Positions 51,040 through 57,711 of a DNA stretch of 64,000 bases are shown one piece after another. The translations under genes were made by a program, and so were the position numbers. Within the stretch, counting starts at the first letter, position 1. Each line of letters starts with the position of its first letter. The DNA lies in NCBI GenBank assembly GCA_964620965.1, contig CAZUHV010000003.1, forward strand, positions 12,777 to 76,776, given 5' to 3'. This DNA comes from an uncultured Pseudomonadales bacterium (lineage in GTDB: Bacteria > Patescibacteriota > Microgenomatia > UBA1400 > PJMF01). A model generated the notes under the pieces. The model saw only the letters and a list, made by a program, of their open reading frames with translations. It was not told the DNA's origin and did not search any database.

Positions 51040-54000
51040 TTACTTTTTTGCCTCTTCTGGCACACCATAAATAGACATTTGAATTTGTTTATCAAGAACT
51101 CTTGCCTTAAGTTTGTTTTGCATTTCAAACAATCTACGTTTAATTGAATTAGATCCAGTTCTAATAACTTGGTTAACTCCAAACTTAGGTTCTGTTCTAG
51201 CAATCCTGAGTGCTGCCGGATCCAATCTAGCATCATTAACTAGTGATAACATAGTTATTCCAAGCCCTTGTTTTATCGTAGCTCTTGGAATAAAATTAAG
51301 AATATAGTCTCTGATATCAGGCATTTCTGCTTTTTCTCTGGCAGAATCACTTAAAGCTTCAAAACTTGGCATCTTACCACCTCTAGGAAGTAACATTCCA
51401 ATATTTTTAACTTGGTCATGGCTTCCTGGTACTAAAGCTTTATAGTCTTGTTCTGCCTTTTTACCTGCTTGCATTTCTGCTTCTGTTAGAACATCTTTGC
51501 CAAAATAAAAGTCTTTTTTCTCTTCTGTCTGCATATAAGATGCTACTAATCCTCTGCTTACTTTATACATAGGAGGATTAGAGCCACGAACCTTAGAAAA
51601 TTTAGTTAAACCCATACCTGCCATATTAGCAGAATCTTCCTTCAAAATTCTTTGAATACCGTCTGTCAAGAATTTCTGTCCGGAATCTGTGTTGTCACAG
51701 ATTCTATAAATTTTATACATTTTATCTATATACATAATGATGTTTTGAGCAATATGATCCCACCTAAACCAGAACATAGCTGCTTTAAGAGGTGAAAAAG
51801 TATTTTGGATAATATCTTTAAGACCCTGTAAAAGTTCTGCTCTAAAGGCCTCTGGATCTTTTTTAGCTATTGCTTCAAAATCTAAACTACCACCAGGAAC
51901 ACCATCTGTTTTTAAAGCAAATTCTTTATATTTTTCAAAGCCAGTCCACCATGCTAAGAAACCAGTCTTTTTATTAGCATCTTGTCTTTGTCTACTTGCT
52001 AAGATAACAAAAGAATAAGCATCTGGATAAGCTGTTTCTATGTGGTCATAATAACTGTTTAAAGAACCTAATTTAACCCTATGTTTTCTAACTCCTCCAG
52101 AAATTGCTTTATTTACTAATCTTGTTAAATGTTGAGAAATCAAAATATTACTTACATTTTCAAAACTACCTGGAATTTTTCCAACAGTTGGATCAATAAT
52201 TCTATCTTCCAATCTTGTTCCATTTAAATATGTAATAATTGCTTGTTCATCAGTATTATCTTTTCCGAAGTTCTCCAAATCCCAATCTACTCGATAATAC
52301 AAAGATAATGGATGAGGCCTAATTCCTTTATAGCAAGCATAGTTGGCTGCTCCATAAGGATTTACAGCTTTCATCATATCTTGATAGTAAGCTATTCCTC
52401 CAGGAGGAGTTGCTCCTGTTGAGAATCTGGTATTAAAATTATGTAGACCAACACCTAAGGATGTTCCCATCCTCACAGCTAAAAATTGGATTATACGCCT
52501 TTGGTAAGCATCTGGGTCTTTTTCTTGTAAGAGATTTTTAACATCTTCTTTTGAGAATTCAACTGTTTCATCTTTACCCATAGAAAGAAATTCTTCTTCT
52601 CTTGCAATGTTGCAAACAATCTTCCCATCTTTTTCTGTAAAGAATTTTTGACTATTTTTACCATCACGATTCTTTCTCTTCAAAAGATCGTCGTATCTTT
52701 TTTCAAAGTTAACAAAATATTTCTTTAATGCAGCTTCATCAACACCACCTATAGACTTATCTTTTCTCAGGAAAGAATTTAGCTTTTGCTGAGCATCCCT
52801 TGCTTCTTGAGATCTTTCTCCTTTTTCCAAAACTGCTTGTTTATATGTAATATTTAAAATTAAATAATCTATAAATAAATTTATGAAGGCACTAAACTGT
52901 TCTTTTGTCTCACCACTATCTTTATGATCCCAACCATTTGGTAATAAAACTATCTCGAAATCATTCATCAAGAATGGTAATAAGAACATAATCACACGCA
53001 ATGTTCTAGAATGCTCAAAAACTAAATCTTTTCCTATTTCTTTTTCAAAATGAGTAAAAAAGTCGAAGGTGTTAGAAATATTATAGTCTTCATCTCCAGA
53101 TCTATCTGTTCCTCCAACGTCAGTTTGTTTTAATTCTTCATAGTTACAAGCAAGAGAGGCTATTCCTCCATTATTTGCCCTAATTCTTCCAAGATCATCA
53201 ATATATGTTGCCTGCAACATCATCAAGCCTTGAGAACCATATTTAATTCTCCAGTATTCAGCTTCTTCTGGAGATAAAAGATTCTCCAGAATTTTCTCAA
53301 ATCTCGTGAAAACCCCATGTGCTGAGTTATGTCTATCAGAGGCCTCAGCACGCGCAAATGGCAATATAAACTTCATAAAACCACTTGCTTCATGATTCAT
53401 TTTAGAATTTGATCTAAAAAAGTTAATCATTATTTTGTTTGACTGATTTATAAAAGCTTCTAATACAATTAGTAACTCTCTTCTACTTTCCGGACTTTTT
53501 CCTTTATCTTCAATTTTAGAAATCACTTCATCAAACATCTCTATATATAGGTTTAACCAAGTATCATCTTCCGGAAGTTCTGGTTTTCTAGAAAAATCTA
53601 AACCATGTATAACAGGTTCTTTACTTGTATCAACGCCTGTTGGAGTTGCTGGGGTTGTTCGTGCTTTCAATAGATCCCTAACATGTTGTAAATCAGCTCT
53701 GACACGAGCAATTTTATTTGAAATCATTTCGGCAAAAAGTTCTCTTGCTATTGTGACATTAACGTCTATAACTGTTGCAGATCTTTCGTAGAATTCTTTC
53801 CAGACAGGGTAGTATCTGCCTGAAGTAATTGCTGTGAGTAGGGCATCAAAATTAGCAACTTGGACATCACTGTGTGCAGAAGGAGTATTCTTAAATTGCT
53901 CAGCAAAAACAACCAATTTATCTAGTTGTTGAACAATTCTATTAAACTCCGCTTTTCTCTCAGGGGTATTTATACTAAATTTCTCATAAAGAGTCTGCAT

Positions 54001-55488: not shown

Positions 55489-57711
55489 TTGTTCAAGCAT
55501 TTGTATAAATCAACGAGCATTGAACCCATGTTGTATCAACAAACAGTACCAACTCAATCTCCAGAATCATTTTTTCAACCAAACTATATAGAAGGTTCTT
55601 TTTTAACACAAAAAATAAATACTACTCATAAAAAATTACTTGAACAAAGATTATTCTTTCAACAATTGTTGAAAGAACAATCAAAAATAAGAGCTAATAG
55701 AAAAAAAAACACCTTCACTTCAAAAAACTCAATCTGGGACACGGTCAAACTTGTAGATAGATTTGCAAAGACAGAATATCAGTCAACTCAAGCAAAAATA
55801 GACCTTTTAAAATTTGATGCAGATCATTTTGCTAGAGAAATGGCACTCGTTGAAACAATTACTCGGTTTTCATATTGGCATAGCATTAAAGAAGATGAAA
55901 CTTTTGGAGATGGATATTCAGAAGATTTGGGACTTATGCTCAACACATTTGCTCAGGACCTTTCAAAAAATGGATTCAATGCCTCTAGAGCAACAATTGA
56001 ATCTGTGTCATTTCAAAAAGCAAAGTACTTATTAACCCAAATTGCTTTATCCCAAAAAAATAGCGGAATACTTATCACAAGTTTTCCTGATGATAAAGAC
56101 TCCGGCTATCACGGAGTTGATTCAAAACAAAATTGGGATACTCCAGAAACTCATCATTCTTTTTTTTATTTGCTTCAAGTCGGAGAAACTAAACAAGACA
56201 AAACAGGAAAAATAACAGACTTTGAGATAAAAACAACTCAATATAGAGCTTGGCCCAATGCAAGACAAGCGGTTTCTTTACATGAACAATTAGGCCAGCC
56301 AATTCACAACTTTGATGCCCCTATTCCTAACTTACTTTTTGCTAACTTAATAGAACTAGATGAAAAAGCGCTACAAACAGTATTACAATCACAAAAAATT
56401 GTTCCCGATAAAACAGAATTACCAGTCGACTCACAAGAAAATAATCTAGAAAGCATTTTTAGAGAATTTTTATATAGCAACTCAAAAACACACGTAATTA
56501 ACCATACCCATATTCCAAAAGTAGACCAAGAGGCTTTTTGGGAGTTACAAAATACATACTTTACTGATTTTTATCTAACAGTTGCACTTCCAGTTTTTGA
56601 AGAAATTGATCAAATAAAGAAAAAAAATAAACAACTAGATAGAAGAACAATAAAACAGATTCAAGAAAAAATTGACTACTTAGATAAAGCTTTTTTTTAT
56701 TACTCAAAAATACTTTTAGGTTGGATAAAAATTAATAATACTAATCCAAACTACACCGATGCCTTTAAAGAAAAAAGCCAAACTAAAAAACTGATTGATC
56801 TTCAACAAAAACTGCTGCTCAGACTTCTTGGCCAAAAACAAACTACAAAAGTTCCTACTCCAAAAGAGCTCGTTACAGTTTTAGATATTGATCATCGTCT
56901 AGCAACAAAACAACCCGTTTCTAATGCAGAAAAAAAGAAACTATTAACTGTTTGGGGATTTTTTTCATTTGTTGGTAGATTTGGAAGTCTTCTACAATGT
57001 GGAGTCCTTACTCCTTTTACTATGCCTTTATCTATCTTAAAAAAAAGTGTTGGAATTAATAATAATTTGTCTGAATTCACGAATTCTATTCAATCAATTT
57101 CTGTTCCAGAAAAACAAGAATTCTTAAAACAAATTCAAAAAGAAGAGTATGTCGAACTTGACCTTACAGATGTAAAACCTGTTGGGGCTAAAAAAATATA
57201 TTCTGTTCCTAAAAGCTACCTAGAAGGAGCAGGTTGTATTGTTGATGAAAATGGAGATGTTTTGGGACCTTGTATGGAAACAGTTATAGAAAATGGAGTT
57301 GAAGTAAAAAAGAGAATTCCATTGGACGACCCAAGAGATACCTTAGCTTTTCCTATGCCATTGGCGGAATTTAAAATGTATATGCAAACACTACAACAAA
57401 ATATTCAACAGGCTTCTCTCTCTGAGATTGACCAGATCTTCACTGAAGGTGATTTTTCTGATAGCGAAAAAAGAGAAGTTCAAAAAACTATTAAAAAGCT
57501 CAGACAAAAACTAATTAAACAGTCGCTTGGTTTACAAGAATTTTTCACTGGGAATCTCACCAATGAGCTTTTTTATTCAAATAATAAGTGGCTCAAAGAA
57601 TTGATTCTAAAACTCTCTTTCTCACTCAACCCAGTAGAAACATTAATTACAGAAGTAGAGATGAAACTAAACGAATCAGACTCTCCCATAGAACAACTCA
57701 TTTCAGAATAA
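55489..57711 (+). CDS. Large hypothetical protein (740 aa)
   Basis: Long ORF transcribed divergently from the 402-aa/1004-aa pair. No TM segments. No family recognised. Confidence 0.5.
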   Translation: MFKHLYKSTSIEPMLYQQTVPTQSPESFFQPNYIEGSFLTQKINTTHKKLLEQRLFFQQLLKEQSKIRANRKKNTFTSKNSIWDTVKLVDRFAKTEYQSTQAKIDLLKFDADHFAREMALVETITRFSYWHSIKEDETFGDGYSEDLGLMLNTFAQDLSKNGFNASRATIESVSFQKAKYLLTQIALSQKNSGILITSFPDDKDSGYHGVDSKQNWDTPETHHSFFYLLQVGETKQDKTGKITDFEIKTTQYRAWPNARQAVSLHEQLGQPIHNFDAPIPNLLFANLIELDEKALQTVLQSQKIVPDKTELPVDSQENNLESIFREFLYSNSKTHVINHTHIPKVDQEAFWELQNTYFTDFYLTVALPVFEEIDQIKKKNKQLDRRTIKQIQEKIDYLDKAFFYYSKILLGWIKINNTNPNYTDAFKEKSQTKKLIDLQQKLLLRLLGQKQTTKVPTPKELVTVLDIDHRLATKQPVSNAEKKKLLTVWGFFSFVGRFGSLLQCGVLTPFTMPLSILKKSVGINNNLSEFTNSIQSISVPEKQEFLKQIQKEEYVELDLTDVKPVGAKKIYSVPKSYLEGAGCIVDENGDVLGPCMETVIENGVEVKKRIPLDDPRDTLAFPMPLAEFKMYMQTLQQNIQQASLSEIDQIFTEGDFSDSEKREVQKTIKKLRQKLIKQSLGLQEFFTGNLTNELFYSNNKWLKELILKLSFSLNPVETLITEVEMKLNESDSPIEQLISE

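Follow-up and report, generated by a model that had tools for sequence, protein, structure and literature searches.

We describe here a group of three genes, called A, B and C, located within a type IV secretion system (T4SS) locus, in which gene A is replaced between closely related strains by large genes without BLAST-detectable similarity to it. The group lies on a stretch of 64,000 nucleotides (the window) of contig CAZUHV010000003.1. Gene A (51040-54054, minus strand) encodes a soluble protein of 1004 amino acids (aa), predicted to be mostly alpha-helical. It is preceded on the same strand by gene B (54088-55296), which encodes an acidic protein of 402 aa and ends 33 nt before A (gap 54055-54087). 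Gene C (55528-57711, plus strand) diverges from B, lies upstream of a gene for a CHAP-type hydrolase and encodes a soluble protein of 727 aa. These open reading frames (ORFs), their strands and the 33-nt gap had been described in an earlier annotation made from the letters alone (the sequence-only reading) and agree exactly with the ORF list, in which C is a maximal ORF of 740 aa starting from TTG at 55489 (55489-57711). However, the start of C is most likely the ATG at 55528, because 12 homologs all keep methionine 14 of the maximal frame, and a length of 727 aa is also what gene callers predict. The 231 nt between B and C (55297-55527) contain only weak matches to promoter consensus sequences, and divergent promoters are presumed to lie there. 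All three are real genes, since each of them has homologs under purifying selection.

No signal peptide was seen in A, B or C. Neither B nor C has a 19-residue window reaching a Kyte-Doolittle (KD) value of 1.6, and A has a single hydrophobic helix (aa 354-372, KD 1.84), which is probably buried because it lies inside a confidently modelled helix (H349-370; predicted local distance difference test, pLDDT, of 87-94 for the block). The earlier description of the triplet as free of transmembrane (TM) segments, signal peptides and nameable motifs therefore holds, with this helix of A as its only qualification. Scans of the three proteins against Pfam, NCBIfam, PHROGs and PADLOC gave no significant match (for C, only sub-threshold DnaB_N and PIN noise in Pfam and NCBIfam), and nothing significant was obtained in the PDB with the single sequences. 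The remote-homology and structure checks recommended by the sequence-only reading gave the same answer: profile searches of the PDB with A, B, C and the neighbouring VirB6-like protein found no match, and Foldseek returned nothing below E = 0.02, with TM scores of about 0.1, for the models of A (against PDB and BFVD) and C (against PDB). The AlphaFold2 model of A, built on a 20-sequence alignment, was confident, mostly helical and multi-domain (pLDDT 75.6; predicted template modelling score 0.75), and that of C was poor (pLDDT 61.7). Three families without a match in these databases, two of them (A and C) also without a similar PDB fold, thus join the parts list of the secretion machine.

The window was compared by blastn with the contig of a near-identical strain (L018; related loci are designated by such numbers). 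DNA identity was 96% over 44907-50648 and 93% over 54095-57673. No similarity was found over the block between them (50649-54094), which runs from the 3' part of the VirB6-like gene through intergenic DNA and the whole of A, and L018 carries in place of A a gene for a 1240-aa protein. The left breakpoint, at about 50650, is sharp, as identity falls from about 98% to background within 50 bp. In a second pair of loci (L004 and L011), whose flanks are 77-82% identical, similarity is lost at the same VirB6 codon (about 463) and is back only upstream of B; therefore B was exchanged too in that pair. Collinearity extends over the whole region in two genomes that carry the same type of A (family F2, below). 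Identity within one type is 99.0% for A, 98-99.5% for its neighbours and 96% for B.

Every protein encoded at the position of A (the A slot) is large (872-1505 aa) and soluble and lacks a signal peptide. All-vs-all BLAST, a family hidden Markov model and hhalign separated these proteins into at least five families without BLAST-detectable mutual similarity: F1 (window, L010, L014, L015, L016 and L017), F2 (L002, L006 and L012), F3 (L004 and L009), F4 (L011 and L018) and F5 (L013). The slot of L016 (5920-13603) contains two large genes, one for a 1356-aa protein without detectable relatives and one for a 1200-aa member of F1, plus a gene of 249 aa. Because of these two large genes, it can be said that the slot can hold more than one cassette.

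Comparison of the window proteins with their syntenic counterparts in eight related loci revealed a graded conservation. Identity was 60-76% for a 376-aa protein of the locus, 64-71% for the VirB6-like protein, 50-65% for C, 36-47% for the CHAP protein and 21-43% for B, and A had no detectable match in seven of the eight loci. The one match, with 44% identity over aa 18-363, is to a copy in L010 that is truncated. Family F1 is still recognisable in loci whose VirB6-like protein is only 39-46% identical to that of the window (L016 and L015), but is missing where this identity reaches 64-71%. The distribution of F1 is thus mismatched with the phylogeny of the core, and therefore points to exchange or replacement rather than drift.

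The VirB6-like gene (49248-50915, plus strand) is convergent with A and encodes a polytopic membrane protein of 555 aa, with a signal-peptide-like N-terminus and 6-7 hydrophobic segments by hydropathy. With at least five TM segments and a place in a T4SS locus, it has features expected of VirB6/TrbL proteins, and its position is conserved. The name VirB6-like, proposed by the sequence-only reading, is retained here from position and topology; neither the 11 orthologs in Pfam (VirB6, TrbL, PrgH) nor their profile in the PDB gave a match. VirB6 is often too divergent for detection in some T4SS classes (PMC12102498).

The last part of this protein, a variable tail rich in lysine and arginine (codons ~466-555 plus stop, 50643-50915, plus strand), was delimited by alignment with L018. 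The core (aa 1-465) is 100% identical between the two strains, and the tail (aa 466-555) 28%. Tails cluster by A family and not by similarity of the core. Those of L011 and L018, both with F4, are 45% identical over 97 aa (E = 5e-24), those of the window and L017, both with F1, 34% over 73 aa (E = 5e-13), and those of L004, L009 and L013 (F3/F5) 32-48% over 42-71 aa (E = 1e-7 to 4e-9). Conversely, the VirB6-like proteins of L004 and L011 have cores 85% identical, unrelated tails, and different A families beside them. This co-variation agrees with a functional pair made of the tail and A, and the positive charge of the tail suggests that it is cytoplasmic.

Gene B is always found immediately upstream of the A slot. 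Its protein was rightly described as acidic (isoelectric point, pI, of 4.53), and the seven orthologs for which pI was computed are acidic as well (4.2-4.65). Its N-terminal region (aa ~1-70) is variable and acidic, and its C-terminal domain (aa ~225-402) is conserved. Its invariant residues are mainly aromatic or hydrophobic (F, W, A, L, P), which suggests a scaffold rather than an enzyme. Compared with L018, B is a mosaic. The synonymous divergence (dS) is 1.3-1.4 in residues 121-240 and 361-402 and 0.05-0.24 elsewhere, as in the neighbouring genes, and the ratio of nonsynonymous to synonymous divergence (dN/dS) is 0.1-0.2. Positive selection in the variable patch (dN/dS 0.19, dS 1.44) was considered and rejected; as dS is high and dN/dS low, the patches are imported DNA. 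A patch of B co-varying with the A family was also looked for and not seen.

B proteins form two broad types, alpha and beta, neither of which tracks the A families. Moreover, B was kept at 85% identity in the pair window/L018 despite the swap of the A family. For these two reasons B seems to behave like a general partner, and not like a specific immunity protein or a dedicated chaperone. By its sequence it is an acidic cytoplasmic protein encoded next to its putative client, as chaperones and adaptors are, and it has no match among known chaperone families in Pfam, NCBIfam or the PDB, by single sequence or by profile.

Relatives of A were detected only with difficulty. A word-indexed homolog search returned A alone, and an exhaustive phmmer search was needed to recover 19 relatives (15-42% identity). 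Four of them have readable surroundings (L010, L015, L016 and L017), and all four lie beside the VirB6-like gene or other genes of the locus; L014 is too short for its surroundings to be judged. Three of these four loci adjoin a pilin array (L015, L016 and L017). In F1 the N-terminal ~500 residues are variable, and conservation is concentrated in residues ~526-600, 626-825 and 901-925 and in the extreme C-terminal tail. All 20 members end in [FLI]G.P.E[DE]QKK...[DE]KK, with G997 invariant. A loose regular expression for this tail, applied to 231 ORFs of at least 150 aa from the window and the fetched loci, matched F1 proteins alone, although it missed A of the window; the tails of the other A-slot families differ from that of F1. 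The family also has invariant Tyr, Lys and Arg residues (NYKxYK). The Walker A motif [AG]xxxxGK[ST] does not occur in A, B or the other A-slot proteins, with C outside the scan, and for the patterns HExxH/HxxEH these proteins gave a single match, of HExxH type, in the L002 A-slot protein; the search did not extend to HUH.

Gene C belongs to a family of 12 sequences with 50-97% identity and 202 invariant columns. A distant homolog in L016, 23% identical, keeps the motifs GYxGxDxK, LLQCG..TPF, LGPC and DDP..LAF. Scans with the C profile recovered three loci in the genome collection and one in the metagenome collection, so the lineage is rare in the scanned collections at the sensitivity of this pattern-based scan. 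We also examined C as a candidate PD-(D/E)xK nuclease, since P200-D201...D211-x-K213 is invariant in the close family, and rejected it, as D201 is lost in the L016 homolog and no fold match was found. By its conservation C appears to behave like a component of the machine or of the locus. The C gene of L009 is spread over two ORFs (9950-10942 and 11050-12201), perhaps because of a frameshift or an assembly error.

The triplet is surrounded by genes of the secretion machine. Eight T4SS_pilin genes (PF18895, VirB2-like, assigned by profile match) form an array at 40673-44347 (plus strand). They are followed at 44406-49104 by a plus-strand gene whose 1173-aa product has a signal or anchor at its N-terminus and, on the minus strand, by the gene for the 376-aa soluble protein (47974-49104), both identified from ORFs and hydropathy. 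These two are conserved members of the locus, syntenic in L002, L012, L016, L017 and L018. The 376-aa protein, the most conserved member across species, has a folded N-terminal part of ~260 aa, then an acidic and then a basic low-complexity tail, and no family match. After C come the gene for the CHAP protein (57755-62200, plus strand) and that for a Big_5 protein. The CHAP protein (1481 aa) has a large soluble N-terminal region, a TM cluster (aa ~1112-1235) and a CHAP-like C-terminus, and is a candidate VirB1-type cell-wall hydrolase. Its CHAP match (E = 1.6e-4, 22.6 bits) falls under the Pfam cut-off of 26 and is weakly positive in the orthologs as well, so that the neighbour named CHAP by the sequence-only reading is kept below the formal threshold.

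The order of the locus is pilin array, 1173-aa gene, 376-aa gene, VirB6-like gene, A slot, B, C, CHAP hydrolase, VirB3-like, TraC-like (PF26593), VirB4 and dnaA. On related contigs (L002, L004, L006, L012 and L013) it goes on in this way to the PrgI/VirB3-like gene, the TraC-like gene (PF26593), the VirB4-like ATPase and dnaA. We take the TraC-like protein to be the equivalent of TrsD. A compact version is found in L015 (8487-14876), where a 505-aa gene, an F1-type A, the VirB6-like gene and pilins lie beside ribosomal and translation genes. Wherever the surroundings of relatives of A, B and C are readable, they are T4SS/pilin loci. A, B and C and these relatives thus lie within or beside a T4SS locus, and no context lacking one was recovered; a broad occurrence of homologs in genomes without T4SS or pilin genes, the finding that the sequence-only reading had named as contrary to it, was not encountered.

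A coupling protein (T4CP) is also predicted in the window, ~40 kb from the locus. This VirD4-like ATPase of 777 aa (9125-11458, minus strand) matches TrwB_AAD_bind (3.8e-7), DUF87 (2.3e-8) and TraG-D_C (5e-4) in Pfam, and is a possible substrate receptor. Its distance from the locus agrees with the report that Patescibacteria coupling proteins are usually encoded far from virB4.

Two further observations concern the pilin genes. An ECF (extracytoplasmic function)-type sigma-70 factor gene (40050-40574, minus strand) is divergent from the start of the array and is a possible dedicated regulator of the T4SS/pilin locus. A T4SS_pilin domain (PF18895) also occurs at the C-terminus of another protein of 402 aa (27979-29187, plus strand), encoded ~11 kb from the array and much larger than the array members.

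The window genome is low in GC and belongs to an ultrasmall bacterium of the Patescibacteria (candidate phyla radiation, CPR); for C, the nearest named relative comes from 'Patescibacteria group bacterium BroJett025'. The locus is of the chromosomal, dnaA-proximal and relaxase-less T4SS type of these bacteria (cf. PMC12102498) and is a member of the Patescibacteria/CPR systems described as MPF_FATA-like (Wang et al., 2023, PMC10633639; Quinonero-Coronel et al., 2025, PMC12102498). It shares with them the array of PF18895 VirB2-like pilins, the PrgI/VirB3-like, TraC-like (PF26593) and VirB4 proteins, the cell-wall hydrolase, the position next to dnaA, the lack of a relaxase in the locus and a T4CP encoded elsewhere. 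In Southlakia epibionticum, the only species tested, this T4SS is essential to growth as an epibiont (PMC10633639). Its role has been called completely unknown, with effector delivery a speculation (PMC10633639, PMC11665869). In the sections consulted, PMC10633639 and PMC12102498 describe neither A, B and C nor a replaceable slot nor a co-variation with the VirB6 tail, and leave genes without profile hits grey. Also, two records with a Patescibacteria-type locus, L008 (CAZZDG010000001.1) and L009 (CAZDWQ010000001.1), are titled 'uncultured Pseudomonadales bacterium', a label which looks wrong.

The sequence-only reading had offered two alternatives for the triplet as a whole, secreted effectors or toxins with a chaperone or immunity partner, or novel cytoplasmic parts of the machine. 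Our data split the triplet instead, as A is cargo-like, B a general partner and C machine-like. The explanation that we favour, quite possible if short of probable, is that A is an exchangeable T4SS cargo or host-specificity module which docks on a matching VirB6-like tail, B a general acidic adaptor and C a conserved cytoplasmic accessory. The data show that the three genes are members of a chromosomal, dnaA-proximal T4SS-like locus and are conserved to different degrees, that between strains the content of the A slot changes at defined breakpoints although A is conserved within a type, that the VirB6-like tail varies along with the A family, and that none of the three has a domain or fold already known. 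With T4SS core proteins 60-100% identical, strains and species carry in the A slot large soluble proteins unrelated by BLAST. According to our proposal, homologous recombination exchanges the genes of this slot in one module with the C-terminal tail of the VirB6-like protein, and the three genes have different roles. A, as an effector or a host-specificity factor handled by the T4SS, would dock on its cognate tail, and possibly also through its own conserved Lys-rich C-terminal tail and the VirD4-like coupling protein of the genome. B, encoded just upstream, would be its general adaptor or chaperone-like partner. C would serve the machine as a conserved cytoplasmic accessory, its gene heading the rightward set (CHAP hydrolase, VirB3-like, TraC-like and VirB4).

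Several observations weigh against this explanation. A Pfam scan, which included six alternative A-slot proteins and the two large genes of L016, left every A-slot family without a recognisable domain of effector, toxin or enzyme type. Export of A is what we infer, and A has no known secretion signal. There are weak hints of remote homology from hhalign, with a probability of 52% for F1 against F2, over a core RxHxF...T..GG, and of 66% for F4 against F5. The contents of the slot may therefore be alleles of great age from one or two superfamilies and not fully unrelated genes, as could also be expected of a structural part that varies. The co-variation of the tail with A could be mere linkage in the exchanged block, as the breakpoints may simply mark the limits of flanking homology. 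With either 6 or 7 TM segments in the VirB6-like protein by hydropathy, the tail may lie inside or outside. The failure of the B types to track the A families makes a dedicated chaperone role unlikely. Finally, C is not universal, being missing between B and the CHAP-type gene in L017 (jgi Ga0645780_25630, 1-2613) and absent from the L015 locus.

A broader form of the favoured explanation, possible but doubtful in our opinion, is that the A slot and the VirB6-like tail constitute a modular specificity system. Each cassette would bring a cargo or host-interaction protein together with a matching docking tail, and strains of these epibiotic bacteria, by recombining cassettes, would change what the essential T4SS delivers and thereby the hosts open to them. 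If true, the Patescibacteria T4SS would have its first concrete candidates for substrates, and a T4SS channel subunit swapped along with its cargo would be on record for the first time. A slot replaced between strains, with a co-varying channel tail, in any case provides named candidates and a testable design for the Patescibacteria system.

Three known systems are the closest functional parallels, by analogy, and none of them is a homolog. The X-Tfe effectors of Xanthomonadales are T4SS cargo aimed at other bacteria and recognised by VirD4 through a C-terminal XVIPCD domain (PMC8740702). F1 is similar in that a variable part (aa 1-500) is joined to a conserved one (aa 526-825 and 901-925) and a tail motif. 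Unlike in X-Tfe, where it measures ~120 aa, the conserved part of F1 is ~500 aa long, and no sequence relationship was found; A also lacks a cognate immunity gene, the host machine is of monoderm type and translocation of A is only presumed. CagA with its acidic partner CagF, and the adaptors of IcmS/IcmW type, exemplify large (~1000 aa) effectors without signal peptide which have an acidic partner in the secretion locus. A is likewise large, soluble, without signal peptide and paired with the acidic B in the locus. However, there is no homology, and B, much larger than the classical chaperones, starts with a long acidic region that varies and serves more than one A family. Lastly, in the SXT/R391 integrative and conjugative elements a variable segment of TraG, a VirB6-family protein, co-evolves with the partner gene eex and defines specificity groups (PMC2791158). 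The co-variation of tail and A is analogous to this TraG/Eex unit, but Eex, small and located in the inner membrane, acts in the recipient, whereas A is soluble, of 1000 aa and convergently encoded, and exclusion is not expected in a non-conjugative chromosomal system.

The alternative that competes best with a cargo role is that A and B are cytoplasmic parts of the machine which are not secreted, for example a gate, a plug or an assembly platform on the VirB6-like tail, and that their diversity goes back to old alleles kept in balance or to interface modules that co-evolve. Points in its favour are that one large soluble protein of similar size always occupies the slot, next to the VirB6-like gene, that the tail of the latter co-varies with it, and that purifying selection within a type is ordinary. 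The remote-homology hints among the A-slot families and the lack of an effector-type domain also point in this direction. Nevertheless, core parts are not normally swapped for sequence-unrelated proteins where the other components are 95-100% identical, and the two large genes in the slot of L016 (1356 and 1200 aa) suit a list of cargo better than a fixed subunit. We therefore judge this alternative unlikely.

The sharp breakpoints, the mosaic flanks with their divergent patches in B and the entirely uncharacterised gene content of the slot would also fit a recombination hot spot that gathers unrelated accessory genes (defence, anti-defence or selfish cargo) and has no functional link to secretion. 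Yet relatives of F1 occur only in T4SS/pilin loci, distant lineages included, and the slots are always alike in the kind of gene, its orientation and its place after B. PADLOC gave no credible match among the A-slot proteins (one weak DrmMII match in L011, E = 0.002), integrase and mobile-element genes are lacking, and the searches of plasmids and phages with A and of plasmids with C gave no relatives. Such a hot spot thus seems quite improbable.

That A might be a polymorphic toxin and B its immunity protein would be in line with their adjacency, common orientation and 33-nt gap, with the replacement of A between strains and with the probable life of the organism on other bacteria (general knowledge; PMC11665869). 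However, B was retained when A was swapped to an unrelated family, and the one-to-one co-variation expected of an immunity protein was not found, as the alpha and beta types do not match the A families. B is also upstream, large and acidic, with a variable acidic N-terminal region, and the Pfam scans of the A-slot proteins found no toxin domain. The C-terminal variability of polymorphic-toxin type that the sequence-only reading had suggested looking for is contradicted by F1, in which the C-terminal half and the tail are conserved and the N-terminal half is variable, the reverse of polymorphic toxins; it is the whole gene that is replaced between strains. We consider a toxin/immunity pair very improbable.

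Least probable of all, and close to dismissal, is that A (or C) is a highly divergent DNA-processing enzyme substituting for a relaxase: the Patescibacteria T4SS has no recognisable relaxase and its describers left very different ones possible (PMC12102498), and F1 has the invariant Tyr, Lys and Arg of NYKxYK, but Walker A is missing from A, B and the A-slot proteins and the metal-site motif is confined to the single L002 match (C outside both scans), the PD-(D/E)xK-like motif of C is not kept in its distant homolog, and replacement by an unrelated family is unexpected for an essential DNA-processing enzyme.

Other features of the window were recorded away from the locus. A Fic/DOC-family protein of 365 aa (21709-22806, minus strand) has among its neighbours the genes for an ATP-dependent DNA ligase (19783-21678) and for an ATPase of RecF/SMC type (23756-24916). 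A mevalonate-pathway set (31719-38735, minus strand) comprises a diphosphomevalonate decarboxylase-like protein, two GHMP kinases, a thiolase, a protein similar to 3-hydroxy-3-methylglutaryl-CoA (HMG-CoA) synthase and HMG-CoA reductase. Together with an undecaprenyl-diphosphate synthase (29745-30464), this set is a notable biosynthetic capacity for a reduced genome. Also, a tRNA-Ile gene with the anticodon TAT lies at 5290-5363 (minus strand). AUA is read in most bacteria by a lysidine-modified CAT tRNA, and such a direct UAU anticodon is unusual.

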